Shown: one piece after another, positions 1,903-34,063 of the stretch
Layout: every line of letters starts with the position of its first letter
Numbering within the stretch: the first letter of the stretch is position 1
From: Caldilineales bacterium
Lineage (GTDB): Bacteria; Chloroflexota; Anaerolineae; JAAEKA01
Direction: 5' to 3'
DNA length: 64,000 nt
Assembly: GCA_041391245.1 (NCBI GenBank)
Contig: JAWKOJ010000020.1
Coordinates: 33,345-97,344 of the forward strand
Made by a program: the position numbers and the translations under genes
Notes under the pieces: generated by a model
Told to the model about the DNA's origin: nothing
Databases searched by the model: none
Seen by the model: the letters and a program-made list of their open reading frames with translations, nothing else

Positions 1903-1939
1903 GAAGCCCCAACCGTCTCGGCGGTTGGGGCTTCTTTCG
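1903..1939 (+). terminator. rho-independent terminator after rplL
   Basis: GAAGCCCCAACCG-tctcg-GCGGTTGGGGCTTC followed by TTTCG: a 13-bp GC-rich stem then a T-tract. The next gene is on the opposite strand. Confidence 0.7.
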
Positions 1940-1993
1940 CGATAATCATCGGACGCTCGGCTCTTCCAGCGAAGTTGAACGTCTCTGACCGTG

Positions 1994-2850
1994 CTACCCG
2001 TCAGCGGGCGGGGCGGCCAACACCTGGTTGATCACGTCAACAAGCTGATCGTACTCCACAAAGCCAGGAATTCGTGTTCCCTGGCCGGTGGCCGGGCTGA
2101 AGATGAAGAAGGTGGGCGTCCCGGTCACGCCGGCGCTCTGGCCCAGCGCCTGGTCTTCCTGCCAGCGCTGACGGCCGCCGCCGCTGTCCAGGCAGGCGCG
2201 GAAAGCCGCAGTGTCAAGCCCCAGGTCCCCGGCGTATTCCTCAAACTTTCCGGGCAGGTCAGCCACGGCGCCCCAACTGGCGTTCTCCTCGAACAGCAGC
2301 TCCTTCATCTCCCAGAACTTGCCTTGCTGGGCCGCGCACTCAGCTGCCTCGGCGGCGTCATCGGCGCGGTCGTGACTGGGGAGCGGGTAGTGTTTGTAGA
2401 TCAGGCGGACGGTTCCATCGGCGACCAACGTTTCCTCCAGTTTCGGTTCTGTCTCCAGCACGTGGCGACGGCAGAACGGTCACTGAAAGTCTGAGAAGTC
2501 GATGATGATAATCGGCGCGTCGGCAGCTCCCAGCGTGGGAGAGCCGTCCAGCGTGAAACCGGGCCGGTCGGGGTCAACGCTCAGCGGGTCCGGTTCTTCG
2601 GCGGCTGTATCGCTGCCGGTGGACGCGTCGCTCTGGCTCGCGTCGCCCTGACCGGTGTCTGGCCCGCGTCGGTTGACACAGCGGTCGGTTCGGTGGGCGC
2701 TGTCGTTGCCGTCGGCGCCTCGGCGGGCGCTTGCTCGATGGTGGCCTCGACGTTGGACAACCCGGTGTCCACCGGCGCGGCTGGCGCTTGACAGGCCAAC
2801 AGCACAAGGCTCAGCGCGAGCAGCAGCCCCAGTACAGGAAGCTTGCGCAT
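1994..2850 (-). CDS. DsbA-like thiol:disulfide oxidoreductase lipoprotein, candidate selenoprotein (in-frame UGA at first Cys of CxxC; one apparent -1 frameshift near 2650-2670)
   Basis: N-terminus MRKLPVLGLLLALSLVLLAC (signal peptide with lipobox), then a Thr/Ala/Pro/Asp linker. Downstream in the -1 frame: ...GSPTLGAADAPIIIIDFSDFQ-[TGA at 2480-2482]-PFCRRH-VLETEPKLEETLVADGTVRLIYKHYPL...GVTGTPTFFI (cis-Pro loop). The TGA sits exactly where the DsbA family has FSDFQ-C-PFC. A possible imperfect stem-loop (GUUCUG..CCA-CGUGC-UGG..CAGAAC) starts about 3 nt 3' of the UGA. Confidence 0.55.
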
Positions 2851-2861
2851 GAAAGTTCTCC

Positions 2862-3995
2862 TCAGATCTCAGAATCGGTCATTGGATGCACAACGGCATC
2901 GACCAGATAAATGCTGTGGCCGCTTTGCTTGATCTGGTCCACGATCTCGCGCACGCCCTCAGCGCGCTCGCGCGGGCAGACCAGCACAGCGTCCTCGGTG
3001 TCGATGATGATCAGGTTTTCCACTCCCACCGTTGCCACCAGTCGGTCGGCGGCGGTATAGATCAGCGTGTTGCGCGTGTTGGGTGTGGCAGTGAGGCCAC
3101 GGCCGCGAACGACGTTGCCGTGGTCGTCTCCCTCCAGCACCTCCAGCAGCGTCGCCCAACTGCCGATGTCGGTCCAACCGATGTCAACCGGCAGCACGAC
3201 GATATCTTCGGCGCGCTCCATGATGCCATAGTCGATGGTCTGGTGCGGCAGCGTCGGGAAGACCCGCTGCACGGTCGCCTCCGCTTGCGGGGTGCCCAGG
3301 CTGGCCGAAATCTCACGCAACCCCGCGTGCAGTTCGGGCATATGGCGGGCAAACTCGGCCATGATACGGTCGACGCGCCAGGCAAACAATCCGGAGTTCC
3401 AACTGTGGCGGCCATCGGCCAGGAAGCGTTCCGCCGTCGGCTGGTCAGGCTTTTCTACGAAGCGCACCACCCGGTAAACCGGGTGGCCGGCGGCAGCCGG
3501 CAGCGCATCGCCCTGTTCCACGTACCCCAACCCGGTGTGGGCAAAGGTCGGCTTGATCCCCAGCGTCACCAGCGGGCCGCGTTCTGCAACTTCGGCAGCC
3601 GCCGCCAACGCGTCGCGGAAGGCCTGCGGCTTGAGGATCAGGTGATCGGCATGCACCGAGGCCATGATCGCGTCCGGCTGGATGTGGCCGGCCAGCGCCG
3701 CGCCCAGTCCGACAGCGGCAGCCGTGCCGCGCGGCAACGGTTCGCCGACCACGTGACCGGCCGGAAGTTCAGGCAACTGGCGACGGGCGATGTCCACGTA
3801 CTGCGCGTTGGTAACGACCAGTATCCTCTCCGGGGGCACCAGCGGCGTCAGCCGGCGAAAGGTCTCCTGTAGCATCGTTCCGTCGCCGGTGAAGTCGAGG
3901 AACTGCTTGGGGTATGCCTGACGGCTGCGCGGCCACAGTCTGGTTCCGCTGCCGCCGGCCAGGATAACGATGACGAGTCGGTCGGTGGTATTCAT
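2862..3995 (-). CDS. manC: mannose-1-phosphate guanylyltransferase (GDP-mannose pyrophosphorylase)
   Basis: MNTTDRLVIVILAGGSGTRLWPRSRQAYPKQFL... (nucleotidyltransferase G-rich loop). The ORF 2862..4742 has a spurious N-terminal extension; real ATG at 3993-3995. Confidence 0.85.
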   Translation of the reverse strand: MNTTDRLVIVILAGGSGTRLWPRSRQAYPKQFLDFTGDGTMLQETFRRLTPLVPPERILVVTNAQYVDIARRQLPELPAGHVVGEPLPRGTAAAVGLGAALAGHIQPDAIMASVHADHLILKPQAFRDALAAAAEVAERGPLVTLGIKPTFAHTGLGYVEQGDALPAAAGHPVYRVVRFVEKPDQPTAERFLADGRHSWNSGLFAWRVDRIMAEFARHMPELHAGLREISASLGTPQAEATVQRVFPTLPHQTIDYGIMERAEDIVVLPVDIGWTDIGSWATLLEVLEGDDHGNVVRGRGLTATPNTRNTLIYTAADRLVATVGVENLIIIDTEDAVLVCPRERAEGVREIVDQIKQSGHSIYLVDAVVHPMTDSEI

Positions 3996-4538
3996 TGCAC
4001 GAGAGTATAGCTTAAAGAACGGCAGGCAGCAAGTTGAACGGGGCGAAAGCCGCTCCGCAACCTGATAATAGTGCCTATTTCTGGCGGCAATGTTGCTCAA
4101 TTTCCTGCGAGCGCAAAATCTGGGTCGCGAACATGGCGCAATCATAGCGCATGTGAACGCTCCCATGATATGATGCCGATTGTCGCCTTGGTTTGACGCC
4201 GTGCGCTGCATTGTCTTCTCATCGATGCGGCATTGTGTGTTGTGCAGCGTTTGCACGGTTTCTGTGTTTTGCGAAATCCAAGCATTCATGCTAGACTTTG
4301 ACTGCGCAATACCACGCCCGGTTTGTTCGTTCGGCTCCTGCTGACCTTGCTGGCTCGCAACCAGCTCATGTGTCTCTCTTTTCAGTCCGGCATCTTTGCG
4401 TTGCAGTATTGGTTTCCTCTCCATCTTGTAAGTCGCTTCCGACGGCGAGTCGCCGCACGCTTGAAGAAAGGAGGTATCTCGCGCCAGGTAACTTTCTTCG
4501 TCCCATCGTCTTCGTGTGTTCTGCTTGAATATCGACCC

Positions 4539-4556
4539 TGTTACATCGACGTAACA
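4539..4556. promoter_or_regulatory. operator-like imperfect palindrome upstream of glpF
   Basis: TGTTACATCGACGTAACA (TGTTACaT / aCGTAACA) lies 44 bp upstream of the glpF ATG in an AT-richer leader. TGTT..AACA-type palindromes are characteristic of GlpR-like operators. Confidence 0.3.
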
Positions 4557-4599
4557 AAAATTCTTTGCATACCAATCATTCCATTCAAGGAGGAATAGA

Positions 4600-5310
4600 A
4601 TGGGTACCCAAATTCTTATCAGTGAGATCATCGGCACCATGTTGTTGCTGCTCTTGGGCGATGGCGTGGTGGCGAATGTGGTGTTGAAGGGAACCAAGGG
4701 CAACAGCTCAGGATGGATCGTGATCACCTGGGGATGGGGCATGGCGGTCTTCGTTGGCGCCTATGCGGCCGTGGCCATGGGCAGCGGCGCGCATCTGAAT
4801 CCTGCGGTTACCATCGGTCTCTTCGTTGCAGGCGTAACCCCGGCTGCTGAAGTTCCCTACTACCTGGTCGGCGAGTTTGTTGGCGCGTTTCTTGGCGCAT
4901 TCCTGGTTTGGCTGCACTACCATCAGCACTTTGCGGGCACCGACGATCCGGGCGCGAAGCTGGCCGTTTTCTGCACCGGTCCTGCGATCCGCGGCACTGC
5001 AATGAACCTGATCTCTGAAATCATCGGCACATTCGTGCTGATGTTCGCCATCCTGGCCATTCCGCAGGCGTTTAACCTGCCGGGGCCGTATACCGTTGGC
5101 TTGGCTGTGTTGGTCATCGGTCTCGCGCTTGGCGGTACCACGGGCTATGCCATCAACCCCGCCCGTGACCTGTCACCCCGCATCGCACACGCAATTCTGC
5201 CGATCCCTGGCAAGGGTGGCAGTGATTGGGGTTATTCATGGATACCGGTCGTCGGTCCGATCATCGGCGCCGTTATCGCCGCCCTGGTTGCTGGCGTGGT
5301 AATCCCTTAA
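4600..5310 (+). CDS. glpF: glycerol uptake facilitator (MIP/aquaglyceroporin)
   Basis: Two NPA motifs (HLNPAVT, INPARD), six TM segments, RBS AAGGAGGAA. Confidence 0.9.
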   Translation: MGTQILISEIIGTMLLLLLGDGVVANVVLKGTKGNSSGWIVITWGWGMAVFVGAYAAVAMGSGAHLNPAVTIGLFVAGVTPAAEVPYYLVGEFVGAFLGAFLVWLHYHQHFAGTDDPGAKLAVFCTGPAIRGTAMNLISEIIGTFVLMFAILAIPQAFNLPGPYTVGLAVLVIGLALGGTTGYAINPARDLSPRIAHAILPIPGKGGSDWGYSWIPVVGPIIGAVIAALVAGVVIP

Positions 5311-14529: not shown

Positions 14530-14540
14530 AGGAGCAACCT

Positions 14541-15681
14541 ATGCACACCGACTCATGGCAATCTGTTGGTCCGACCCTGGACGAGTGCATCAAGTGCAAC
14601 ATCTGTGCCAGCTACTGCCCGGTGGCGGAGGTGACCGACCTGTTCCCCGGACCGAAGTACGTTGGACCGCAGGCGCAGCGCTTCCGCGAGAACGGCCAAC
14701 CGCGCACCCCCGACCACTCGGTGGACTACTGCTCCGGTTGCCGCGTCTGCAACGAGGTCTGTCCGACCGGCGTGCGCATCACCGAGATCAACACCCGGGC
14801 ACGCGCCCAGTTGGCCGCTGAGAACGGCATCCCGCTGCGCAACCGGATGCTCGGCCGCAACGACGTGCTGGCCAAGCTGGGGAGCATCGTCCCGGGGCTG
14901 GCCAACTTCGGCCTGCACAATGGGCTGAGCGCGCCCTGGCCGACTCGGTCATGGGCATCTCCAAGGGCGCGCAGCTGCCCCGCTGGAGCCGACGACACCT
15001 TCGCCAAGTGGATGAAGAAGAGCGCTGCCCGGCGGCTGCAGTCCGACAAGAAGGTGGTCTTCTACCACGGCTGCTCGACCCAATGCACGAGCCGTTCGTC
15101 AGCAAGGCGGCGGTGGCGGTCTTCGAGCACCACGGCTACGAGGTGGTGGTGCCGGAGCAGGGCTGCTGCGGGCTGCCGCTGCTGAACAACGCCGAGTTCC
15201 CGGCGGCCGCGAAGTATCACCAGCGCAACCTCGACTGGCTGGTGCCATACGCCCGCCAGGGCTACGCCATCGTCGGCACCAGCACCAGTTGCACGCTGAC
15301 GCTGAAGGAGGAGGCGCCGGAGATGCTGGACATGCACAGCCCGGAGGCCCACGACCTGACCATGGCCGTCTGGGACATGTTCGAATGGCTGATGGAGCTG
15401 CGCGACTCCGATCAGCTCAAGACCGATTTCCGTCCGCTGCCCATGGTGCTGCCCTACCACGCGCCCTGCCAGTACCGCGCTCACCGCATCGGCTCGCCCG
15501 CGCTGGAGATCATGCGCTTGATACCGGAGCTGGACATCCGCGAGCCATGCCCGCTGCTGCGGCGGCCGGCACCTACGTCTACAAGAAGGAGAAGTACCAG
15601 ATCGCGATGGACGTCGGTCAGGAGCTGTTCGACTTCGTCAAGGCGCAGGGTGCCGATGTCAATGACGTCGTGCAACTCTGA
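14541..15681 (+). pseudogene. glpC: anaerobic glycerol-3-phosphate dehydrogenase subunit C, reading frame broken by at least 4 frameshifts (sequencing indels or true pseudogene)
   Basis: N-terminus MHTDSWQSV...CIKCNICASYCP...CSGCRVCNEVCP (two 4Fe-4S motifs) in frame 0. The recognisable GlpC-like sequence then alternates between frames near 14940, 15000, 15085 and 15558 (LSAP | LADSVMGISKGAQLPRWSRR | TFAKWMKKSAARRLQSDKKVVFYHGC | PFVSKAAVAVFEHHGYEV...EPCPL | AAAGTYVYKKEKYQIAMDVGQELF). Confidence 0.75.
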
Positions 15682-15792
15682 GACGTGTCGCTGGCACATC
15701 GAGACCGGCACCGACCTCCCCTGCCGCCATCCCATCGAGATCCGCCGCGGCCTATGGGCTGTACGACCTGGACAAGCGGGATTTAGTAGCAC

Positions 15793-15975
15793 CGTAACAC
15801 AATTTTCAAATTGTGTCTGGCGTTGGCAAGAGAGCGGCAAGACAATTTGGAAAATCGTCCTGCGCGAGCTGCCTGCCGCCGCTGGTCGTAACACAATTTT
15901 CCAAATTGTGACTGGCGTCGACAAGAGAGCGGCATGACGATTTGGAAAATCGTCCTACGCATCCTGCTGGCCGCA
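15793..15975. repeat. tandem direct repeat (2 x ~94 bp, ~88% identity), each unit carrying AT-rich palindromic sites
   Basis: Unit 1 runs 15793-15886, unit 2 runs 15887-~15975. Each has ACACAATTTTCAAATTGTGT (perfect inverted repeat) and ACAATTTGGAAAATCG (its half-site in opposite orientation). Lies between the glpC stop and the fbp start. Confidence 0.8.
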
Positions 15976-20452: not shown

Positions 20453-23400
20453 ATGAATGGCGTTCGGCTGTTTGTCCTCGGGCCCCCACACCTGGAGCGC
20501 AACAAGGAGACAATTGACCTGCGGCGCCAGTCACTGACGCTGCTGGGGTATCTGGCTGTGTCCGGCGAGCGGCACCACCGCGACCGCCTGGCAGGGCTTT
20601 TCTGGCCCGACGCTGATCCGAAGCGCGCCTATGCCAACCTGCGCCACCTGTTATGGGAGCTGAACAAGGCGCTGGGAGACGGGATTCTGGACGCCGACCG
20701 CGAGACGGTGGCAGTGGCCGCGGAGGCAGGTCTGTGGACCGATCTGCACGCGTTCCGGGACCTGCTGGCTGCGACCCGCGCCCACGGCCACGCCGAGAAC
20801 GCCGTCTGTCCCCGCTGCATCGCGCCGCTGAGCGATGCAGTCGCGCTGGCCCGCGGGCGCCTGCTGGAGGGCGCTGCTGTGGCCGGCAGCGCGGAGTTCG
20901 ACGACTGGTTGTATTTCGCCGCCGATGAACAGCGAGTCGAACTGCAAAGCGCGCTGCGCAGGCTGGTGGCGATCTACGCCCGCAAGCGCGATCTGAGCGG
21001 GGCCATCGAGGCGGGGCGCCGCTGGCTGCAGCTGGACCCGCTGGACGAGGAAGCGCATCGCCAGGCAATGCTGGTGTACGCGCTGGCCGGCCAACGCAAC
21101 GCCGCACTGCGCCAGTACGAGGAGTGCAAGCGCATTCTGGACGAGGAGTTGGGCGTTGCGCCCGACGCGCGCACGCAGGCGCTGATGGAGAACATTCGTC
21201 GGGGCGCGCTCCAGGAGATGGCCGCTGAACGCGATGCGGTCGTCGTTCTAACCGAAACCGCCGAGCAGCCTGGCCGGCAGACCCCGGCGCCTACGCGGGC
21301 AAGACGACGCAATCTACCCGCGCAGGTGTCGCCGTTCGTCGGGCGGGACGCAGAACTGGCCGACCTGACCCGTCTGCTCGAAACACCCGACGTTCGCCTG
21401 GTCACCATCCTGGGCGTAGGCGGTATGGGCAAGACACAACTGGCCGTCGCCCTGGCTGCAGACGCCGAGTGCCACTTCGAGCACGGCGTCTGCTTCGTCG
21501 CGCTGGCGGCCGTGTCCTCGGATGAGGCGATCATGTCGGCCGTCTCAGACGCCTTCGAACTGCCGGCCCAGGAAGGCGTTGACCTGGCGCAAGTGGTAGG
21601 TGACTACCTGGCAGGAAAAGAGATACTGCTGGTGCTCGACAACGCCGAGCATCTGGCGGGAGCAGCTTCAGCGGTCAGCGCGCTGCTGGCCATGGGGGCG
21701 GGCATCAAGATCGTGGTGACGTCGCGCCAGCCGCTGCATCTGCAAAACGAAACAATCTACGCGCTGTCCGGGCTGGGACTGGCGGCCTCGGGCAGCGAAG
21801 AGGGCATCGCTATCTCCGACGCGGCGCGCCTGTTCGTGCAGTGCGCACGGCGTTTTCAGCCCGGTTTCCGGCTCTCAGCCGAGGACGCGCATCAGGTTGC
21901 GCGCATCTGCCAGGCGGTGGACGGGATGCCGCTGGGAATCCTGCTGGCTGCCGGCTGGATTGAGCTGCTCTCGCCGCGCGAGATCGCCGACGAGATCGAG
22001 CGCAGCATCGACCTTCTGGCGACCGAACTGAAGGATATCCCGGACCGGCAGCGCAGCCTGCGCACCGTCCTGTCGCAGACATGGGAGATGCTCAGCCGGC
22101 GGGAGCAGCAGATTCTGATGGCGCTGTCGCTGTGCCGCGGCGGATTCGACCGCGACGCGGCCGGGGAGATCGCCGGCGCGTCGCTGCGCGATCTGTTGGG
22201 TCTGGCCAACAAGTCACTGGTGCAGCGCAAGGCAGTCGGGCGGTTTGACATGCACGAGCTGCTGCGCCAGTTTGCCGGAGAGATGCTGGCGGCGGGCCAG
22301 GCAGCCTCCGAGGCCGCCCGCCGCGCCTACGGCGACTGGTATGGCACACGCGCCGCCCAGTGGGGACAGGCGCTTACCGGCCCGGATCAGCAACGGGCCG
22401 TCCAACTGTTTCGCGCAGACCTGGCCAACATCGAGGCCGCGCTGAAGTGGGCAGCCGACCACGGGCTGTCCGACTGGCTGAAGGAAGCATGTGAAGGCGT
22501 GGGGATCTACTACTTTCAGTATTACGAGCACTTCGAGCGCGCTGATGCACTTTTTCGCTCGGTCTGCGAGCGACTGGATCGTGTCTGGTCAACGCCGTCG
22601 ATGCACGAAAAGGACCTGCTGGCCTACGCTCTGGCCTGGCAAGCCTTCTTTCACGCCCGCTATACGCGCCAAAGCGACCTGGATGACATGTTGCGTCGCT
22701 GCCATGATCTCCTGCCGGCGCCGGACCAGGATACACCTGAGACCACATTTACGCGCGCGTTTGTTTACCTGGCAGAGGCGGACACGCCGTTGGACGTGCG
22801 TACGCGCGAGCCGTACTACTACCAGAGTCTTGTCCTCTTTCGGCAGGTCGGAGCGGATTGGTGGTCTGCAATGGTGCTGTTCGAGCTGGCAATCAACAAC
22901 TGGGCGATCGACGCGCCCACATCGGAGCGCGCGTTCCGAGAGTGTTTGGCGATCACAGAGCGATTGGGTGACCAGAGCGGGATGGCCGATTGCACGCTGG
23001 CGCTGGCGCGGCTGGCGGCGTTTCGTGACGGTGATATCGACCGTGCAACAGGACTATTTGCCCGTTCTGCCGTTATCAACCGCCAGCTCGGTGACCATGT
23101 CAGCCTGAGCAAGGCGCTGCAAGCTGACGAGGAGTTGGCCTTGATTCAAGGGCGTTTTCCGGATCTGGTTGAACTGCGCGAACGGCGGCTGGCCATGGCT
23201 GAGGATTTGGGATCGACCTATGGCATCGGTCTGTGCCAGATGCTGCTGAGTGAGGCATATCACATGGTTGGCAGATACCAGGACGCGCTGGCAATGGGGG
23301 AGCGTGCTGCGGCGACACAGGAGAAGCGCATCGAACATCATGGGCGGGGATGGCTGAGCTGGATCGTGGGGCTAGCGCTGCTGGCAGTGGAGCGACCGAG

Positions 23401-24400
23401 CGAAGCGTTGCACAAGTTTGAAAACAGCCTCGAAAGCTTTCGCGCCATTTCCGCTGAGTCATGGTATGCAAGCTCGTATCTTGGTCTTGCGCGCGCTTCA
23501 CTGGAGTTGGGAAACGCCGCGACCGCTCGTAGCTATCACTGCCAGACATTGGATTGGCTGCTGCGCCATCCCAACCCGTACTGGTTGGCCTACTGCTTCG
23601 GCAACGAGGCGCTGCGGCGGCTGGAGGCCGGCGATCCTGCGGGCGCGGTTGAGATCTACGCCCGGGCCGAGGCGTTCCCCTTTGTTGCCAACTCGATTTG
23701 GTTCACGGATGTCTACGGCGCGCGCGTCGGGGAGGCCGCCCGCAGCCTGCCCGATGCTGACGCCGATGCAGCGCGGTCACGGGGCGCGGCGCTGGACCTC
23801 TGGGAGACTGCGCCATCGCCGCCGCCTGCGAGGCTGCGGGCTAAGGTGGAACCCGGCCTCGACCCCTGGGAGGCGATGTGGGCGCCGTACGACGAGGCGA
23901 CCTACGCTTTTGTGCTCAGCCACATTCGCCCGGACGACGTGGTGCTGGACATCGGCGCCGGCGACCTGCGCCTGGCACGGCGCATGGCCGCGGTCGCCAG
24001 GCAGGTAATCGCGTGGGAGTCGCAGGCCGAGCTTTTTACGGGGAGCAACGTGCCGGGCAACTTGACTGTCAAATGCGCCGATGCGCGCGTTGAGCCGGCG
24101 CCGGAGGGCGTGACCGCGGCCGTGCTGCTGATGCGCCACTGCACGCACTACGCGTTGTATGTGAAGAAGCTGCGCGCCGCCGGCTGCCGCCAGCTGATCA
24201 CCAACGCGCGCTGGGGCATGGGGGTCGAGGTGGTCGATCTGGTGCCCGGCGCGCCGTTCTCCGCACTGGCGGTGGGCTGGTACGCCTGCCGGCGCTGCGG
24301 GGCCGTGGGCTTCGCCGGGGATGATCCGTCGGCCGTCACGCCGGAGAGATTCGACCAGACCGCGGACGTGGAAGGCTGCCCGCGCTGTCCGGTTGGTTGA
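20453..24400 (+). CDS. SARP (AfsR/DnrI)-family regulator: OmpR-type wHTH + BTAD + NB-ARC P-loop ATPase + TPR-like repeats + C-terminal class-I methyltransferase-like domain with Cys-rich zinc-ribbon
   Basis: N-terminus LFVLGPPHLERNKETIDLRRQSLTLLGYLAV...LWELNKALG (wHTH/BTAD). P-loop ILGVGGMGKTQLAVALA, LLVLDNAEHL (NB-ARC). C-terminus VVLDIGAGDLRLARRMA (SAM-MTase motif I-like) and CRRCGAVGF...CPRCPVG. Confidence 0.8.
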   Translation: MNGVRLFVLGPPHLERNKETIDLRRQSLTLLGYLAVSGERHHRDRLAGLFWPDADPKRAYANLRHLLWELNKALGDGILDADRETVAVAAEAGLWTDLHAFRDLLAATRAHGHAENAVCPRCIAPLSDAVALARGRLLEGAAVAGSAEFDDWLYFAADEQRVELQSALRRLVAIYARKRDLSGAIEAGRRWLQLDPLDEEAHRQAMLVYALAGQRNAALRQYEECKRILDEELGVAPDARTQALMENIRRGALQEMAAERDAVVVLTETAEQPGRQTPAPTRARRRNLPAQVSPFVGRDAELADLTRLLETPDVRLVTILGVGGMGKTQLAVALAADAECHFEHGVCFVALAAVSSDEAIMSAVSDAFELPAQEGVDLAQVVGDYLAGKEILLVLDNAEHLAGAASAVSALLAMGAGIKIVVTSRQPLHLQNETIYALSGLGLAASGSEEGIAISDAARLFVQCARRFQPGFRLSAEDAHQVARICQAVDGMPLGILLAAGWIELLSPREIADEIERSIDLLATELKDIPDRQRSLRTVLSQTWEMLSRREQQILMALSLCRGGFDRDAAGEIAGASLRDLLGLANKSLVQRKAVGRFDMHELLRQFAGEMLAAGQAASEAARRAYGDWYGTRAAQWGQALTGPDQQRAVQLFRADLANIEAALKWAADHGLSDWLKEACEGVGIYYFQYYEHFERADALFRSVCERLDRVWSTPSMHEKDLLAYALAWQAFFHARYTRQSDLDDMLRRCHDLLPAPDQDTPETTFTRAFVYLAEADTPLDVRTREPYYYQSLVLFRQVGADWWSAMVLFELAINNWAIDAPTSERAFRECLAITERLGDQSGMADCTLALARLAAFRDGDIDRATGLFARSAVINRQLGDHVSLSKALQADEELALIQGRFPDLVELRERRLAMAEDLGSTYGIGLCQMLLSEAYHMVGRYQDALAMGERAAATQEKRIEHHGRGWLSWIVGLALLAVERPSEALHKFENSLESFRAISAESWYASSYLGLARASLELGNAATARSYHCQTLDWLLRHPNPYWLAYCFGNEALRRLEAGDPAGAVEIYARAEAFPFVANSIWFTDVYGARVGEAARSLPDADADAARSRGAALDLWETAPSPPPARLRAKVEPGLDPWEAMWAPYDEATYAFVLSHIRPDDVVLDIGAGDLRLARRMAAVARQVIAWESQAELFTGSNVPGNLTVKCADARVEPAPEGVTAAVLLMRHCTHYALYVKKLRAAGCRQLITNARWGMGVEVVDLVPGAPFSALAVGWYACRRCGAVGFAGDDPSAVTPERFDQTADVEGCPRCPVG

Positions 24401-24402
24401 TC

Positions 24403-24440
24403 CTCGCAACCGAACAGTTGCAACAGTTGCGAGTTGTTTT
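24403..24440 (+). terminator. palindromic hairpin plus T-tract between regulator and XPB gene
   Basis: CTCGCAAC-cgaacagttgcaacag-GTTGCGAG followed by TTGTTTT; also contains the tandem AACAGTTGC x2. Confidence 0.35.
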
Positions 24441-24485
24441 CAGGTTCTCGTCACATGGGGTAAACTATCTTTTCGGAGACCGTTC

Positions 24486-26288
24486 ATGCCCGTCAACCCA
24501 CTCAATCCCATGGTCGTGCAGAGCGACCACACCGTGTTGCTGGAGGTGGACAACCCTCAGTACGCCGAGGCGCGCGACGCGTTGGCGCGCTTTGCCGAAC
24601 TGGAGAAGAGCCCGGAGCACATCCACACCTACCGGCTTTCACCGCTGTCCTTGTGGAACGCCGCAGCCAGCGGACTTAACGCCGAGGGCATCGTCGAGAG
24701 CCTGGTGCGCTTTAGCAGATATGATGTGCCGGGCAACATCCAGGCCGATGTGCGCGATTACGTCAGCCGCTTTGGCCGGCTCAAGCTGCGCAGCGGCGCG
24801 AGCGGCGAGCTGTTGCTGACTGCCGATGATCCCCTGTTGTTGCTGGAGGTCAGCCGCAACCGCAAGGTGCGCCCGTTTATCCGCGAGGAGATCGATCGGC
24901 TGACGCTGCGGGTCGATCCCGCCTTACGCGGCCACATCAAGAAGGCGCTGGTGGACATCGGCTTCCCGGCCGAGGACCTGGCAGGCTACGTGGAGGGCGC
25001 CGGCCTGGCGCTGCACTTGCTACCGGCTATGCGGATTAGCGGCGAGCCCTTTGCGCTGCGCCACTACCAGCAGGATGCAGTCGAGGTGTTCCATGCCAGC
25101 GGATCGGCGCGCGGCGGTTCTGGCGTGGTGGTGTTGCCCTGTGGCGCCGGCAAGACATTGGTCGGCATGGGTGTGATGGAGAAGCTACAAACAAACACGC
25201 TGGTGTTGACTACCAACACCGTGGCCGTGCGCCAGTGGATCAGCGAACTACTCGACAAGACCAGCCTCGACCCGGGCGAGATCGGCGAGTACACCGGCGA
25301 TCTGAAGGAGATCAGGCCGGTTACGGTCACCACCTACCAGATCCTGACCTATCGCGAGCGGCGCAAGCGCGGCGCTGCCGACGCCGACGGTCAAAGCTGG
25401 TTCGACAACGATTCCGACGGCGACGACGAGTTGAGCCAGCCGCTGACGCCGGCCAACTTCCCCCACTTTGGCCTGTTTCGTGAGCGCGACTGGGGGTTGG
25501 TGATCTACGACGAGGTGCATTTGCTGCCGGCGCCCGTGTTCCGCATGACGGCCGAGCTGCAAGCGCGCCGCAGGCTGGGACTGACTGCTACTCTGGTGCG
25601 CGAGGACGGCAAGGAGGACCACGTCTTTGCCCTGATCGGCCCCAAGAAACACGACGTGCCCTGGAAGGACCTGGAGCGCCAGGGATGGATTGCCACCGCA
25701 CACTGTCACGAGATTCGCCTGGACATGGACCGGGAACAGCGGCTGGCTTACGCCATGGCCGGCAACCGGGAGCAGGCCGTGTTGGCCGCCACCGACCCTG
25801 CCAAGCTGCCCGTGGTCGAGCAGATCATCGCCAGGCACCCGGACGATCAGGTGCTGGTCATCGGCACCTACCTGGCGCAGCTTGAGGCGATGGCAGACCA
25901 GCTCAACGCGCCGCTGCTGACCGGCAAGACGCCGACGCGCGAGCGCCAGAAGCTCTACGGGCAGATGCGCGAAGGGTCGTTGCGCCGGCTGGTGGTCTCC
26001 AAGGTAGCCAACTTCGCCGTTGACCTGCCGGACGTCAGCGTGGCCATCGAGGTCAGCGGCACATTTGGCTCGCGGCAGGAGGAGGCGCAGCGTCTGGGCC
26101 GCATTCTGCGCCCCAAACGCGACGGGCGCCCGGCCCACTTCTATGCAATCGTCATGCGCGACACCAAGGACCAGACCTTCGCCGCCAAGCGCCAGATGTT
26201 TCTCACCGAACAGGGCTACAAGTACGAGATACTCTACCGCGACGACTTGCCCTCCTACGACCCGGAGCGGGACCATGCCATCTGGTGA
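24486..26288 (+). CDS. XPB/Ssl2 (ERCC3/RAD25)-family superfamily-2 DNA helicase
   Basis: N-terminal damage-recognition-like domain; helicase motifs LPCGAGKT (Walker A), IYDEVHLLPA (DEVH box), GLTATLVRED, later motifs consistent with XPB. Confidence 0.85.
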   Translation: MPVNPLNPMVVQSDHTVLLEVDNPQYAEARDALARFAELEKSPEHIHTYRLSPLSLWNAAASGLNAEGIVESLVRFSRYDVPGNIQADVRDYVSRFGRLKLRSGASGELLLTADDPLLLLEVSRNRKVRPFIREEIDRLTLRVDPALRGHIKKALVDIGFPAEDLAGYVEGAGLALHLLPAMRISGEPFALRHYQQDAVEVFHASGSARGGSGVVVLPCGAGKTLVGMGVMEKLQTNTLVLTTNTVAVRQWISELLDKTSLDPGEIGEYTGDLKEIRPVTVTTYQILTYRERRKRGAADADGQSWFDNDSDGDDELSQPLTPANFPHFGLFRERDWGLVIYDEVHLLPAPVFRMTAELQARRRLGLTATLVREDGKEDHVFALIGPKKHDVPWKDLERQGWIATAHCHEIRLDMDREQRLAYAMAGNREQAVLAATDPAKLPVVEQIIARHPDDQVLVIGTYLAQLEAMADQLNAPLLTGKTPTRERQKLYGQMREGSLRRLVVSKVANFAVDLPDVSVAIEVSGTFGSRQEEAQRLGRILRPKRDGRPAHFYAIVMRDTKDQTFAAKRQMFLTEQGYKYEILYRDDLPSYDPERDHAIW

Positions 26289-28083
26289 AGCCACTGCGCC
26301 GGTCGTTGATCGCGGCCACGGCCTCATGCTGGCTGAGCTGCGCCGCATGCTGGAGAGGACCACCGTTCAGGTGATGCGTCAGGCCGCGCGCCAGTGGGGC
26401 TGGACGCTCAGGGGCACGGCCAAAAACGACCTGGTCGAGCAGATGGTCAGCTATCTTGGCGACCCGTCGGTGATGGCCGAGGCTGTTCGCACGTTGACCG
26501 AAGAGGAAATCAACGTGCTGGGTTGGCTTGTGGCAACGGGACTGCAAGGCCTCTCGAAAAAGCAGTTCCAGGCTGCAATTTTCGAGGGCAGCGGGCTGCG
26601 CATCTCGCAGAAGGCCATCGAGGCGCATCTGGTGAGCCTGTCCGAACGCTGCCTGCTTTTTTACAGCGAGGAAGAAGGATATGAACTTCCGACGCTCTAT
26701 CACCAGTGGTTGCCGCGCCTGGCCGCGCCCAAACTGCAGTTTGCGCCGGTCGAGCGGCTCCAGATACCTTCGCCGCTCACCATCGCCGGCATCACCCAGC
26801 ACGCCCAACATCTCCTGAGCATGCTGGCGTCCGAACAGCCGCCCGCCACAGTGGCGAAGAAGCATACACCGCGCTACGGATCCGGCAAGGTTGAGCCCAT
26901 TGACCCGCGTCGGCCCAGCCTGGTCGCCGAGGAGACCCTGACCCGCTGGGGCTACGAAGCGCCGGCAGATCAGCACCTGGCGCGTTTCCTGCTGGAGCAG
27001 TTGGCCAACGCCCGCGTGTGCCGCGTGAAGACCGAGCGAGACGCCACGCTCATGGAGGTGGACGACGCAAGAAACCGGGCCTGGGAGATCGCCACGGCCG
27101 CCGAGCGCCTGGAGCGGCTGCGTCGCGCCTATGTCAAGCTGTCCGGCGAGGGCGAAGCACGATTGAATTCCTGGAGCGAGTGGGACATGGTGTTCAGCCA
27201 GGATCGGGATGAGACACTGCAGTCGAAAGGTCCATGGGTCACTGCCGATATGGTGCTGCGGCAGATCCAGGTGTTGGGTGTCTGGTTCAGCACCCTGATT
27301 GCCGGCCTGCAAACCGATACCTGGTATGGCATCGAGCAGTTTTGCAAGCTGGTGTATCGGACGAAGAGCGACTTGATGACCGCGGCATCGGTGATCTCGC
27401 AGTTCTTTTGGGCTGTGGACGGCAAGGTACAGTATGCAGATCAACTGCCCTTCGACCGCTGGATGACAACCTACGGTCGTCTGGTGCAGGCCTGGCTGAC
27501 CGGCCCGGCCAGGTGGCTGCTGTTCGTGCAAATTGCGACCATCGGCGATCAGCCGGTTGCCTTTCGCCGCCCGGCGGCGCTGCCGGCCGGGGTCGCGTCG
27601 CCCGCGCCGCCCGGCTCGCTGCGGTTCATGGACAGCGGCAACATTGCCCTGATCAACGACTGGCGCGTCAGCGACCTGCGCCGCCTGCTGCAACTGATCA
27701 GCGTCGAGGTGGCACGCAATGATAAGACAACGCTGTTGCGGCTGGACACCGGCGCATTTCGCAACACGCTCGGATCAGGCATGAATGCGCAAGATGTCGG
27801 CAAGGCCTTTGCCGCGGCTGGGTTTCCCCTGCCGGTGGATGTACAGGCGACGCTGCAAACCTGGCAGGGCCGCGTCGGCCGCTATCAGCTTTACGATCAG
27901 GTGGCCGTGGTGGAGTTTGGCGAGGACGTCCTGCCGGAGGAGATGCGCGTCATCGGCCGGCTGACCAGCGCCGAGTACTACCAGACCGGGCCGCGCTGTC
28001 TGATTTTCCCCGATCCAGAGGCCGCTCCCGCGTTGGTTGAGGAGATGCGCCGCCGGGGCTACACGCCGCAGGTGATGCCGTGA
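26275..28083 (+). CDS. uncharacterised protein, translationally coupled to XPB helicase (partner 1, 602 aa)
   Basis: ATG at 26275 overlaps the XPB stop by 14 nt. Long ORF with no internal stops in a high-GC context, and the antisense ORFs are shorter. No recognisable catalytic motif. Confidence 0.7.
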   Translation: MPSGEATAPVVDRGHGLMLAELRRMLERTTVQVMRQAARQWGWTLRGTAKNDLVEQMVSYLGDPSVMAEAVRTLTEEEINVLGWLVATGLQGLSKKQFQAAIFEGSGLRISQKAIEAHLVSLSERCLLFYSEEEGYELPTLYHQWLPRLAAPKLQFAPVERLQIPSPLTIAGITQHAQHLLSMLASEQPPATVAKKHTPRYGSGKVEPIDPRRPSLVAEETLTRWGYEAPADQHLARFLLEQLANARVCRVKTERDATLMEVDDARNRAWEIATAAERLERLRRAYVKLSGEGEARLNSWSEWDMVFSQDRDETLQSKGPWVTADMVLRQIQVLGVWFSTLIAGLQTDTWYGIEQFCKLVYRTKSDLMTAASVISQFFWAVDGKVQYADQLPFDRWMTTYGRLVQAWLTGPARWLLFVQIATIGDQPVAFRRPAALPAGVASPAPPGSLRFMDSGNIALINDWRVSDLRRLLQLISVEVARNDKTTLLRLDTGAFRNTLGSGMNAQDVGKAFAAAGFPLPVDVQATLQTWQGRVGRYQLYDQVAVVEFGEDVLPEEMRVIGRLTSAEYYQTGPRCLIFPDPEAAPALVEEMRRRGYTPQVMP

Positions 28084-30461
28084 CGCCGCCGCCCCTCGCT
28101 GCCGCACTGGACCAATTCAACAGCAATGTTCTGGGCAGCGTGCTTTACGCAGCCGGTGTGTCCGATGTGCCAAAGGCGAAGAACGCCAAGGTGCGTCTTT
28201 GGCTGACGCTGGTTGGCGACCCGGACCGCATCCACCGCTCGCTGGCCCAACTGACACCGGTCGCCCGCCGGTCGCTGGAGCTGTTGCAGAGCGCAGGCGG
28301 CGAGATGCGCACGAATCGCTTCCAAGGCCTGCTGGCGCGGTTGGGTGTCGTGTCCCAGCAAACGGAGTCGCCTTACGACAGTTACGGCTCTCGTCGATTG
28401 AGCCAGACATCGGCCCGGCAAGACAAGTCGGGCAAGCCACTCTTTTCAGCGGTGCTGGAGGATCTCCTGCGTTCGGGCCTGATCTGGACGCACACGCTGC
28501 GTCCAGGCTTGCCTGGCAATGCCAAGATCGGCTTCGAGGGCGGGTGGTACGTCTACATTCCCGACGAAGTCGCGGGACATCTGCCGCCTCTTCCTGTCAA
28601 AGACTATGCCGTGCCCGAACTGGTGCAAACGCTGGAAGGCTCCGCGCGCACCTGCCAGCGCGACCTGTACCTGGTATGGAGCGCGGCCCGCGAAGCACCG
28701 TTGCAGCTTGTGAACACCGGCCTGCTGCGGGTCAGCGATCTCAAGCGCGTGGCCGGCCAACTATTGCTGACCGAAACCATCGCCACCGGCACAAAAGAGA
28801 ACGACTATCGTCGCATCTTCTTCCTGCGCCGGTTGGCCGCTTCGCTGGGGCTGCTGGCCTACGACGCGATCGGCAATCAGCTTCAGGCGAACGCCTCGCC
28901 TGCCTTCATCTCCCAGACGCCGACGGAGCGAGTGCGGCTGAGCTTCAACCATTGGCGTGACGGCGACTGGTACAATGAGCTCGTCGCCACAGTAACCGGT
29001 TCCCAAGCGCAACCAGGGAGCTTGCTGGCCAACCCGGCGCCTCCCCAGCTTGCATCGGCGCGGCGGACGGTGCTGGATACGCTGGCGACCCTGGTGCAAC
29101 GGGCCGAACGCAAACATCGCACTACGGCGCCCTGGGTGCCATTGGAGGGCATCAGTGACTACCTGCGGGAACGCAAGGATGAGTTTCTGGTGGACCGGAC
29201 CACTGCCGAGGAGCGCGCGGCCAGCTACCGCTACTACTACGGCGCGGGCTTCTATTCGCCCTACGAGCACAACCGTCTGGGCTGGTCATGGCCGGCGTAT
29301 ACACGCAACGAGGAAGCTGGATGGAACGGGGTGGAGCGGGTCTTCATCGAGACCGTCCTGACCGAGGGCGCATACTGGTTGGGACTGGTCGATCTCGGCT
29401 ACGCGGAGCCGGTGACGCCGGCAAGCGGCCCAGCGCCGGGCGGCGTGGCGGCCGTGCGGTTGACCGACATGGGCCGCTGGCTGCTGCTGAATGGTCCGGC
29501 GCCCGAAGTCCCGGAGGAAAGCGGCCGGGTCGTGGTGCAGCCCAATTTTCGTATCTTCGCCTTCGACCCCATCGCCGACACGGTGCTGGCACGGCTCGAC
29601 AGCTTTGCCAGCCGGCAAAACGTCGAACGGGCCATCGAGTACGAACTGACGAGGGAAACGCTCTACCGCGCCCAACTGAATGGACAGAGCGCCGGTCAGG
29701 TTGATGCCTGGCTGCAGGAGGTGACCGGCGCGCCGCTGCCGCAGAACGTGGCGCGCAGCCTGGAGGAGTGGCAGGCTGCCTACGAGCGGATCACCGTGCG
29801 CAGCCGCGTCGGCTGGGTGGAGGCGGCCGCGCCTGAGCTGGTTGAGGCGCTGCTCAACGATCCTCGCTGGGACCAGGCAGTCGTCAAGCGCGCTACGCCA
29901 ACGGGCTTGATCGTGCGGGCCGACCGCATCGAGGAGATGGAGCGCGCCTTGCTGAAGGCTGGCGAGTTGCCGGTGCGCAACAACGACCCGGAGGCCGCTC
30001 GCCGGAGAAGCATCACGGTGGACGAGGAGGGCCGGATCGGCTTTCTCCACGCCATCCCCAGCCTGTACGTCTGCGGCTATCTGCGCCCCTTCAGTGAGGA
30101 GCGGGCGACTGGCTGGCAGATCACGGCGCGCAGCGTGACGCAGGCCGGCGCGGCGGGGCTGGATGCCGCCGCCATCCTGAGCCGTTTGAACGCAATGGCG
30201 GTCGGCGGTGTGCCGCCGGCCTTGCAAACCCGGATCAAGGCCTGGAGCCAGCACTACGGCGCCGCTGTTGTGCAGACCCTTACCCTGGTGCAGTTCCGCG
30301 ATCAGGATGCCCTGGATGAGTTGCGCACCGATCCGATGCTGGCGCGCTGTTTGACACCCTTCAAACCCGAAGCAAGGCTCGGGCTGGCCGTGGTCGCGCC
30401 GGACGACCTGGCGTCGCTGGAAGCGCTGCTCGAGGAACGCGGCGTGGAGGTACGCCGGTAG
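28080..30461 (+). CDS. uncharacterised protein, translationally coupled (GTGA overlap) to partner 1 (partner 2, 793 aa)
   Basis: GTG start at 28080 overlaps the TGA of the upstream gene. 793-aa ORF; no recognisable family by eye. Confidence 0.7.
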   Translation: MTPPPLAAALDQFNSNVLGSVLYAAGVSDVPKAKNAKVRLWLTLVGDPDRIHRSLAQLTPVARRSLELLQSAGGEMRTNRFQGLLARLGVVSQQTESPYDSYGSRRLSQTSARQDKSGKPLFSAVLEDLLRSGLIWTHTLRPGLPGNAKIGFEGGWYVYIPDEVAGHLPPLPVKDYAVPELVQTLEGSARTCQRDLYLVWSAAREAPLQLVNTGLLRVSDLKRVAGQLLLTETIATGTKENDYRRIFFLRRLAASLGLLAYDAIGNQLQANASPAFISQTPTERVRLSFNHWRDGDWYNELVATVTGSQAQPGSLLANPAPPQLASARRTVLDTLATLVQRAERKHRTTAPWVPLEGISDYLRERKDEFLVDRTTAEERAASYRYYYGAGFYSPYEHNRLGWSWPAYTRNEEAGWNGVERVFIETVLTEGAYWLGLVDLGYAEPVTPASGPAPGGVAAVRLTDMGRWLLLNGPAPEVPEESGRVVVQPNFRIFAFDPIADTVLARLDSFASRQNVERAIEYELTRETLYRAQLNGQSAGQVDAWLQEVTGAPLPQNVARSLEEWQAAYERITVRSRVGWVEAAAPELVEALLNDPRWDQAVVKRATPTGLIVRADRIEEMERALLKAGELPVRNNDPEAARRRSITVDEEGRIGFLHAIPSLYVCGYLRPFSEERATGWQITARSVTQAGAAGLDAAAILSRLNAMAVGGVPPALQTRIKAWSQHYGAAVVQTLTLVQFRDQDALDELRTDPMLARCLTPFKPEARLGLAVVAPDDLASLEALLEERGVEVRR

Positions 30462-32878: not shown

Positions 32879-34063
32879 TCAGCCGCCGGCCGGCAGTCGC
32901 CGGATCACCTGGGTGTAGAACCGGCAGGCATCGACGATCTGCTGCACCGGGCAGGCTTCGTTGGGCATGTGGGCCAGCTTCTGGTCGCCCGGTCCGAAGC
33001 CGATGGTCGGGATGCCCAGGCTGGTCGGCGTCACCGCGTTGGTGCTGAAGTCCCAGAAGATGAACTCGGGCTGCTGCCCGGCGAAGGTGTCCCGGTAAGC
33101 GGCGGCGCAGGCCTGCGCCAGCGTGTGCCCGGGGTCGATCTGCCAGGCCATGTGGAAGGGTTCGTAGGTGATGGGCAGGCCGGTCCAGCTTGTGCGGTGG
33201 AGGGTGCCGATCTGCCATTCGGCGCGCTTGCCGGCCACCAGCCGGTCCATCTCGCCGCGGATGTCGTCCTCGGTCTCGCCGGGCGCGATGCGCCGGTCGA
33301 GATACGCCTCGCATTCGGATGGCACGGCGTTCAGCGAGGCGGCAGTGCTGGCGATGCGTGACATGACCAGCGTTCCTTTTTGCCCGCCACTGGCCATCAG
33401 TTGGGCGTTGGTCGCCTCCACCCGCTGGATGATCTCCGCCATCTCGTAGATGGCGTTGACGCCCTTCTCGGGCGCGGAACCGTGGGCCGAAACGCCGTGA
33501 GTTCGAATGGCAATCTGCGCCTTGCCGCGGTGGCCGAGGCTGATGCGGTTGTTGGACGGCTCGCAGATGACCACGTTGTCCGGCCGCAGGTCCAACTCAC
33601 GGAACATGTGTCGCAGGTTCTCGCCGTCGCAGTCCTCCTCGAACACCGTGGCCGACACGTAGACAGTCTTGCCGGCCGTATAGCCGAGCCGGTGGGCGGC
33701 CGCCGCCGCGTAGAGCGAGGCCGCGGCCGACGACTTCATGTCCACCGAGCCGCGGCCGTAGAGCAGCCCGCCGGCAATGACGCCGCCGAAGGGCGGGTGG
33801 TCCCAGGCCGCCTCGTCGTTGACGGCCACGGTATCGACGTGCGAGTCGAACAGGATGGACGGACCGTGGTCGCCGATGCGTCCGAGCACGTTGCCCATCG
33901 CGTCGACGATCACCTCGTCGAAGCCGAGGTCGTGCATCTTCTGCTCGACCAGCCGGATCGCCTGCTCCTCCTGCCCGGACAGGCTCTGGATTCTGACAAG
34001 GTCCTGGGCGAAGCTGATCAGGTCCGCCTTTTCTTGTGGTGTGATAAGATCGGTTGTGTTCAT
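32879..34063 (-). CDS. M20-family metallopeptidase, YgeY-like (family named 'putative selenium metabolism hydrolase')
   Basis: VIVDAMGNVLGRIG, VFEEDCDGENL, GVSAHGSAPEKGVNAI, RTSWTGL, FWDFSTNAV, GIPTIGFGPG, AHMPNE: closely parallel to conserved blocks of E. coli YgeY as recalled. Confidence 0.7.
   Translation of the reverse strand: MNTTDLITPQEKADLISFAQDLVRIQSLSGQEEQAIRLVEQKMHDLGFDEVIVDAMGNVLGRIGDHGPSILFDSHVDTVAVNDEAAWDHPPFGGVIAGGLLYGRGSVDMKSSAAASLYAAAAAHRLGYTAGKTVYVSATVFEEDCDGENLRHMFRELDLRPDNVVICEPSNNRISLGHRGKAQIAIRTHGVSAHGSAPEKGVNAIYEMAEIIQRVEATNAQLMASGGQKGTLVMSRIASTAASLNAVPSECEAYLDRRIAPGETEDDIRGEMDRLVAGKRAEWQIGTLHRTSWTGLPITYEPFHMAWQIDPGHTLAQACAAAYRDTFAGQQPEFIFWDFSTNAVTPTSLGIPTIGFGPGDQKLAHMPNEACPVQQIVDACRFYTQVIRRLPAGG

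Follow-up and report, generated by a model that had tools for sequence, protein, structure and literature searches.

Within this locus a DsbA-like domain on the minus strand is interrupted by a TGA codon, and the question is whether that codon ends translation, marks a damaged gene, or is decoded as selenocysteine (Sec). The locus lies in a stretch of 64,000 nucleotides, which is called the window here and was analysed as a whole. A sequence-only reading of it had placed the TGA exactly on the first Cys of the DsbA CxxC motif and had proposed a Sec-containing, DsbA-like lipoprotein whose two parts lie in different frames.

Layout of the locus and its reading frames

Translation of the minus strand gives GAADAPIIIIDFSDFQ, then the TGA at 2482-2480, and then PFCRRHVLETEPKLEETLVADGTVRLIYKHYPL up to the terminal TAG at 1996-1994. 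In the context IIIIDFSDFQ-U-PFC, the TGA stands where a CxxC motif of the DsbA type has its first Cys. Two frames are involved. The first is that of a lipoprotein ORF, which begins at ATG 2850 on the minus strand with a Shine-Dalgarno sequence, GAGGAG, 8 nt upstream, encodes a signal peptide with the lipobox LLAC (Cys20), and runs to a stop at 2581 in a frame other than that of the DsbA domain. The second frame, open from the upstream stop at 2881, reads DTGQGDASQSDASTGSDTAAEEPDPLSVDPDRPGFTLDGSPTLGAADAPIIIIDFSDFQ-TGA-PFCRRHVLETEPKL and continues to the TAG at 1996-1994. No ATG, GTG or TTG was found in this DsbA frame between 2881 and the TGA; the sequence-only reading had stated this for about 2483-2659. 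The features of the locus are as follows.

2791..2850, minus strand: lipoprotein signal peptide MRKLPVLGLLLALSLVLLAC, with lipobox L-L-A-C, starting at ATG 2850
2660..2790, minus strand: Ala/Pro/Thr-rich linker in the signal-peptide frame (the frame of 2850)
2659..2660, minus strand: junction at which 4 nt (GGCG/GCGG) present in the contig L009 are missing, so that the DsbA domain leaves the signal-peptide frame
2483..2659, minus strand: last part of the linker, then the first beta-strand of the thioredoxin fold (DPLSVDPDRPGFTLDGSPTLGAADAPIIIIDFSDFQ); DsbA frame, no start codon
2471..2482, minus strand: active-site motif U-P-F-C, with UGA 2482-2480 as the predicted Sec codon at the nucleophilic Cys position
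2451..2469, minus strand: candidate SECIS core, the conserved upper hairpin GUC-G-CCA[CGUGC]UGG-A-GAC, as obtained by folding
2446..2477, minus strand: extended stem-loop of the sequence-only reading, including the outer helix GUUCU/AGAAC, which is not conserved
1994..2470, minus strand: rest of the DsbA/Thioredoxin_4 domain, with the helical insert, the cis-Pro loop GTPTFF (2105-2122) and the TAG at 1996-1994
1903..1956, no strand assigned: hairpin AAGCCCCAACCG…CGGTTGGGGCTT in the intergenic stretch towards which rplL and the dsbA-like gene converge

The last of these is probably a bidirectional intrinsic terminator, and a weak Rfam match to 'sar' corresponds just to this hairpin. Farther away in the window, a YgeY-like 'selenium metabolism hydrolase' had been pointed out as a circumstantial sign of selenium use. 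The assignment of this gene (32882-34063, minus strand) to the YgeY family of hydrolases holds, with a score of 380 bits (cutoff 321). The link to selenium does not, because the neighbours, an APH-like kinase and a quinone reductase, are not selenium-related, and the gene therefore says nothing about Sec.

Fold and family of the encoded protein

Domain searches, which were run with the TGA read as Cys, matched the protein to two Pfam families at scores well above the gathering thresholds: Thioredoxin_4 (PF13462; 2.9e-24, 86.6 bits against a cutoff of 23.2) and DSBA (PF01323; 2.5e-16, 60.5 bits against 25.6). In the alignment with the solved DsbA structures 7unn and 4pwo (E=7e-20), which at the level of sequence spans the CPFC motif, the helical insert and the cis-Pro loop, FSDFQ-C-PFC is matched with FSDFECPFC, and GVTGTP with the GVSGTP of the cis-Pro loop. 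Translation, Pfam and the sequence alignment to solved structures thus agree with the earlier placement of the TGA at the first Cys of CxxC. With good confidence, the protein can be predicted to adopt a thioredoxin fold of the DsbA/BdbD type in which the nucleophilic active-site residue would be Sec (U-P-F-C).

When the window protein, with its frame repaired and U replaced by C, was compared with NCBIfam, the only match was NF041057, the 'Rcas_1661 family thioredoxin-like (seleno)lipoprotein'. The match covers positions 2-246 of the 247 in the profile and begins at residue 10 of the protein, and its score, 168.2 bits, lies below the equivalog cutoff of 190. Scores of the orthologues described below range from 164.4 to 184.9 bits, and 190 is exceeded by just two proteins, the L006 form (197.9) and the two-domain P0002 (335.9). 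Because NF041057 is the sole NCBIfam match and is full length, yet scores 168 bits against a cutoff of 190, the clade that contains the window protein, as judged from these profile scores, either extends an already catalogued kind by a new member or stands beside it as a borderline or sister clade.

Conservation of the TGA among orthologues

A search with the repaired protein returned full-length Cys forms, P0001 (79% identity, CPFC) and P0006 (67% identity, CPYC), together with four 'proteins' of only 156-159 aa (P0007, P0008, P0032 and P0087; 62-88% identity), all of which begin with MLETEP. These short proteins had been called from a GTG six codons past a TGA, at the equivalent of position 2461 in the window. 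The contigs that carry them come from separate runs (ENA ERZ27280341; Logan SRR28430727, SRR17578869, SRR30350717 and SRR22452307), and in each contig an unbroken frame leads from a signal peptide through the linker and TGA-CC(N)-T(T/A)C-TG(C/T) to the end of the domain. The TGA is present at the homologous codon in seven other distinct assemblies: L001, L002, L003 (=L004/L005), L006, L009, L010 and the distant L090. Amino acid identities are 44-89%, and L009 stands for a strain with 99.6% identical DNA. In every Sec-form orthologue found, the TGA sits within an uninterrupted lipoprotein frame, and the sequences derive from various samples and assemblers. L010, found in a scan of GTDB representatives, belongs to the MAG 'uncultured Chloroflexia bacterium MFD09779.bin.2.73'. 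L090, a two-domain fusion with 44% identity whose second domain has TGA-CCA-TAC-TGC, came from a scan of JGI metagenomes, in which no close relatives were found.

The context of the codon is conserved as well. The gene order of L001 is that of the window (manC, the dsbA-like gene, and rplL-rplJ-rplA-rplK-nusG-secE), the signal peptide is kept in L001, L002, L003, L010 and P0001, and the orthologues retain both the lipobox and the UxxC/CxxC domain. The linker between the two differs in length, always by multiples of 3. Decay of the locus among orthologues, which the sequence-only reading had named as a possible refutation, was not observed: their frames are single and intact. In the window copy no second lesion accompanies the 4-nt deletion.

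The TGA aligns with the first Cys of CPFC or CPYC in P0001, P0006, approximately 180 Cys-form loci and the solved DsbA structures, so the comparison with Cys-containing orthologues that had been suggested earlier gives a clear correspondence. The codon is TGC in P0001 (locus L007) and in P0006 (locus L008). The nearest Sec form differs for each of these two Cys forms, and therefore two Sec/Cys switches are indicated. In L007, whose identity with the Sec form L010 is 91%, the hairpin downstream of the codon is intact. The more distant L008 has 4 changes in the 24 nt that follow the motif, including loss of the GU in the loop; the pattern would fit two switches, one of them recent. Clustering at 50% identity places the whole Sec clade in one representative (P0007) inside a very large DsbA-like superfamily, and an exhaustive search of representatives with the C-terminal fragment gave mostly multi-domain DsbA repeats, which carry no information on the prevalence of Sec.

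Coding constraint on the two sides of the TGA

Pairwise comparison of the window gene with its orthologues gave dN/dS values near 0.1 on either side of the TGA: 0.06-0.21 for the 40 codons that precede it and 0.08-0.24 for the part that follows. Synonymous sites in these pairs are heavily diverged (dS 0.55-1.4). Purifying selection thus acts on both sides of the TGA, in a single frame.

These values bear on a rival account of the TGA, namely that it arose as a nonsense mutation or a base-call error (TGC to TGA) in a decayed DsbA pseudogene in which no recoding takes place. A single base separates TGC from TGA, and the window gene has two lesions if the stop is counted along with the frameshift. 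However, the same TGA recurs in the seven other distinct assemblies at 44-89% identity under strong purifying selection on both sides, and a neutral lesion would be neither shared in this manner nor paired with the frozen synonymous sites that lie downstream. These comparisons make it untenable to explain the TGA by a nonsense lesion or a base-call error common to all these sequences, and the account can be regarded as largely refuted; the probability that we would leave to it is almost negligible.

Another account takes the TGA at face value, either as a true stop followed by independent translation of the domain from GTG 2461, or as a UGA read as Trp, Cys or Gly without selenium. The public gene calls P0007, P0008, P0032 and P0087 split the gene in exactly this way, and no Sec machinery was found within the window. 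A product that starts at GTG 2461 would, however, have neither signal peptide nor beta-strand 1 and would lack the entire CxxC motif, and no Shine-Dalgarno sequence precedes this GTG. In addition, the six codons from the TGA to the GTG evolve as coding sequence, PxC codons included: the changes are synonymous in Pro (CCG/CCC/CCA) and Cys (TGC/TGT) and conservative in the case of Phe/Tyr, which argues that these codons are translated. As for readthrough by another amino acid, genuine stops in the window are most often TGA, which ends 13 of the 22 confident genes, so the genetic code is not reassigned, and the position of the codon is that of the catalytic Cys/Sec. We therefore consider this account very improbable, if slightly less so than a lesion. 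A scan of the window for other in-frame TGAs with a coding signal on both sides gave no further candidate, and only that at 2482-2480 looks genuine.

A conserved, predicted hairpin downstream of the UGA

If the UGA is decoded as Sec, an mRNA element that permits this is expected nearby, and the 24 nt that follow the UxxC codons, CGU CGC CAC GUG YUG GAG ACA GAA, are identical in all six distinct Sec forms of the clade except for one position in the loop. When invariance was scored at codons that are degenerate and encode an invariant amino acid, 7 of 8 codons at +4 to +11 after Sec proved invariant, and the corresponding figure elsewhere was 19 of 97 (Fisher p=2e-4, for a region picked post hoc); the same test over codons +1 to +11 gave p=0.002. 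The hairpin region is under constraint at the nucleotide level.

The core of the hairpin, 2469-2451, starts 10 nt after the UGA, and the spacing from the UGA to the apical loop is 17 nt; for bacterial SECIS elements a range of 16-37 nt has been reported (PMC10778597), into which this value falls. The apical loop, CGUGC, carries G22 and U23, counted from the U of UGA, and a G17·A29 mismatch is located three pairs below it. A small apical loop containing G is a feature of the SECIS consensus (PMC1088965), and the loop here is of this kind. In L090 the hairpin is tighter, CUCCAC-GUU-GUGGAG, and keeps the same register. Of the larger stem-loop in the sequence-only reading, the upper 19 nt are conserved. 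The outer GUUCU/AGAAC helix is not: in the Tyr variants and L090, pairing is lost at 6-37, 8-35 and 10-33 (L003, L006 and L090).

Tests that address the pairing itself gave less distinct results. Compensatory changes were found at 0 of 13 pairs among the six distinct sequences, folding energies have z-scores of -0.4 to +1.3 and are no better than those of shuffled sequences, and over the same 26-nt stretch the fold of 44% of the GC-rich Cys homologues is as good or better. Rfam returned neither a SECIS nor any other match at the hairpin site at E<=10.

Selenocysteine as the most probable reading

Conservation of the UGA in frame, the existence of Cys sisters, purifying selection on both sides, the frozen sites in the hairpin and the match to a (seleno)lipoprotein family, NF041057, together lead us to support the proposal of Sec made in the sequence-only reading. 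On this comparative evidence, TGA 2482-2480 is very probably a Sec codon in the gene for a DsbA-like lipoprotein, which would be anchored to the membrane and act outside the cytoplasm as a thiol-disulfide oxidoreductase.

Expression of such a gene might proceed along the lines known from E. coli fdhF. A ribosome would arrive at UGA 2482-2480, where the mRNA hairpin 10 nt downstream (2469-2451), displaying G22U23 in its apical loop, might recruit SelB·GTP·Sec-tRNASec; Sec would then be inserted and translation would go on to the TAG at 1996-1994. The product would presumably be exported, lipidated at Cys20 and anchored on the outer face of the membrane, where the Sec-Cys pair could exchange with disulfides of substrates. 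Recognition of the SECIS by SelB, incorporation of selenium, lipidation and the redox role are all predictions drawn from these likenesses. Among the 30 ORFs scanned within the 64-kb window there was no match to selA, selB or selD, and the window contains 0 tRNA genes.

The frameshift in the window copy

The window copy differs from its orthologues in that its catalytic domain is not in the frame of its signal peptide. A nearly identical contig, L009 (Logan SRR32022564, 1,063 nt), is 99.6% identical to positions 1702-2760 of the window and differs from it by four SNPs, three of which are inside the gene and all synonymous in the DsbA frame, and by GGCG inserted at window position 2659/2660. 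With these extra 4 nt, L009 has a single frame from the linker to the end, retains the TGA and reads AVSTDAGQADTGQGDASQ. Relative to L009, then, the window copy has a 4-nt deletion (GGCG) at 2659/2660, and as assembled its signal peptide and catalytic domain are consequently out of frame. The sequence at the break is GGGCCAGACACC, and the deletion shows a 1-nt microhomology and lies outside any homopolymer.

The frame break had been located earlier at 2650-2670, which agrees with this position. The accompanying explanation, a homopolymer indel in GGCCC, is rejected from the local sequence and from the size of the difference, 4 nt. Entry into the DsbA frame through a -1 shift, insofar as a programmed shift is meant, is rejected as well: the upstream ORF contains no slippery heptamer of the X XXY YYZ type, and the orthologues are encoded in one frame.

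The deletion could be a very recent, strain-specific inactivation or an error of assembly, and we consider the two about equally probable. Should it be real, the window copy would be a recently inactivated selenoprotein pseudogene from which no functional protein is made. A deletion with 1-nt microhomology outside homopolymers is atypical of consensus errors and looks biological, neither an in-frame start nor a slippery site is present to rescue the frame, and the replacement of Sec by Cys twice among close relatives suggests that the family is evolutionarily labile. On the other side, a second lesion is absent, and none of the three SNPs that separate the coding sequence from that of L009 changes an amino acid in the DsbA frame. 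Moreover, GlpC in the same window (14540-15940) has at least three frameshifts beside intact GlpA, GlpB and GlpK, which hints at local indel errors in the assembly. Weighing these points, we give a pseudogene slightly less than an even chance. GlpB and L7/L12 of the window were looked up for further contigs of the same strain, and neither was recorded.

Significance for annotation and for the evolution of Sec usage

The main value of these findings lies in annotation. All public assemblies examined split the gene into two ORFs at the UGA, and as a result the selenoprotein is invisible in protein databases. General knowledge of selenoproteins is left unchanged, since DsbA/DsbG-like selenoproteins with UxxC have been catalogued since 2005-2006 and an NCBI model already exists. 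Within the clade, nevertheless, Sec and Cys forms of one extracytoplasmic oxidoreductase can be compared in a small natural set, in which one Cys form keeps the hairpin and another has lost it.

A bolder possibility is that the clade, with its scores under the NF041057 cutoff and its single cluster at 50% identity, constitutes a distinct subfamily, as yet without a name, of seleno-lipoproteins that Chloroflexota of soil and wastewater export; it would have an unusually minimal 19-nt SECIS and be in flux between Sec, Cys and loss. The flux is suggested by the two independent switches, one with the hairpin kept, and by the frameshifted copy. We put this forward tentatively and consider it rather unlikely; if true, the clade would provide a natural series on the gain and loss of Sec and on the minimal needs of a SelB-binding element.

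Comparison with known systems

The SECIS of E. coli fdhF, with a sequence that was checked against 5,419 genomes before the two were compared, is likewise a hairpin inside the ORF just after the UGA, as in the window gene. Work from the Böck laboratory reportedly established the structure of the fdhF element and the role of G23/U24 and of the bulged U17. GU is found in both apical loops, at nt 22-23 in the window and at nt 23-24 in fdhF, and both helices are irregular three pairs below the loop, by the G17·A29 mismatch in the window and by the bulged U17 in fdhF. The two hairpins, however, share no sequence similarity, and their loops differ in size, 4 nt in fdhF against 5 nt in the window (3 nt in L090). 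The helix in the window is also shorter and weaker than that of fdhF.

With respect to the protein, the closest known structures are the DsbA/BdbD proteins 7unn, 4pwo, 3eu3 and 3gyk from Gram-positive and actinobacterial sources, which match the window protein at E=7e-20 to 9e-13 and share with it the fold, FSDF-x-CPFC and GTP. Like the predicted window protein, these bacterial disulfide oxidoreductases work outside the cytoplasm and are anchored as lipoproteins or in the membrane, but all of them have Cys and none has Sec, and their identity with the window domain is about 35-40%.

Selenoproteins of a related kind have been described as well. UxxC 'DsbA-like' selenoproteins (PF01323/COG2761) were described in the Sargasso Sea survey (PMC1088965) and in surveys of genomes, and they resemble the window protein in their DsbA-type fold, with Sec as the first residue of CxxC, and in their predicted SECIS hairpins, which have G in a small apical loop (PMC1088965, PMC13188914). 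They form another subgroup of DsbA, however, that is similar to FrnE/COG2761, whereas the best Pfam match of the window protein is Thioredoxin_4 (BdbD-like) and its match to FrnE structures is weak. The closest known family is NF041057, which corresponds to the UxxC 'DsbG-like' selenoprotein first reported by Zhang et al. in 2006 (2026 review, PMC13188914; PMC1794560); Chloroflexi were credited with selenoproteins already in that year (PMC1794560). The window clade differs from this family in its longer Ala/Pro/Thr linker and its mostly sub-cutoff scores, and shares with it the lipoprotein signal peptide, the thioredoxin fold, UxxC/CxxC with alternation of Sec and Cys, and an origin in Chloroflexota, the phylum of the family's name-giver.

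Sec and Cys forms among relatives of the DsbA-like lipoprotein

Among the orthologues of the DsbA-like lipoprotein, L007 (642-720) is a Cys form, with TGC at the first CxxC position, and has 91% identity to L010, a Sec form with TGA at that position; the SECIS-like hairpin of L007 is unchanged. In L008 (725-800), which is also a Cys form, the hairpin has been lost, and the nearest Sec form is L006 (69%). The pattern points to two independent Sec/Cys switches within a narrow clade.

The distant relative L090 (FWPU01006136.1, 1554-3204) is a lipoprotein fusion of two DsbA-like domains, the first carrying CPFC and the second U-PYC, with TGA at 2736 and its own, tighter hairpin. An exhaustive search revealed many proteins with three to six DsbA-like domains in tandem.

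Genomic surroundings and assembly quality

The dsbA-like gene and the convergent rplL are separated by a strong hairpin, which is probably a bidirectional terminator.

1903-1956, hairpin AAGCCCCAACCG…CGGTTGGGGCTT between rplL and the dsbA-like gene

The Rfam “sar RNA” match to this interval was weak (29.6 bits versus 43) and reflects nothing more than this hairpin. An interval of approximately 600 nt (3995-4600), bounded by the manC start on the minus strand (ATG 3995) and by glpF on the plus strand (4600), has a GC content of 42-55%, versus 63% for the window, and an Rfam search of this stretch gave no match at E<=10. A mechanically called ORF, 2862-4742, crosses it spuriously; the real manC start is ATG 3995.

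Relevant to the interpretation of the frameshift in the dsbA-like gene is GlpC, the anaerobic glycerol-3-phosphate dehydrogenase subunit (14540-15940, plus strand), which is spread over three reading frames by at least three frameshifts. The adjoining GlpK, GlpA, and GlpB are intact.

Frame of 14540, plus strand, GlpC N-terminus
ORF 14951-15934, plus strand, GlpC profile positions 134-327
Two other frames, plus strand, GlpC C-terminal pieces

The broken GlpC is either a decayed gene or the product of clustered assembly indel errors.

Other genes in the window

The YgeY-like M20 peptidase proposed in the sequence-only reading was borne out: the “selenium metabolism-linked” YgeY-family hydrolase at 32882-34063 (minus strand) scores 380 bits against an NCBIfam cutoff of 321. 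Its neighbors encode a phosphotransferase resembling APH(4) and a quinone oxidoreductase of the PIG3 type; no selenium-dependent molybdenum hydroxylase genes lie beside it.

An XPB/Rad25-type repair helicase (829 bits) has very large ORFs on both sides.

20453-24400, plus strand, 1315-aa ORF flanking the helicase
24321-26288, plus strand, XPB/Rad25-type helicase
26020-28083 and 28080-30461, large ORFs, no NCBIfam match at E<=1e-20

The region 20453-30461 (plus strand) could be an uncharacterized helicase-associated cluster. A 460-aa ORF at 47049-48428 (minus strand) may encode an ABC/AAA-type defense ATPase, with weak N- and C-terminal matches to the retron-associated effector ATPases (Eco8 effector, 1.6e-12; PtuA, 1.4e-8).
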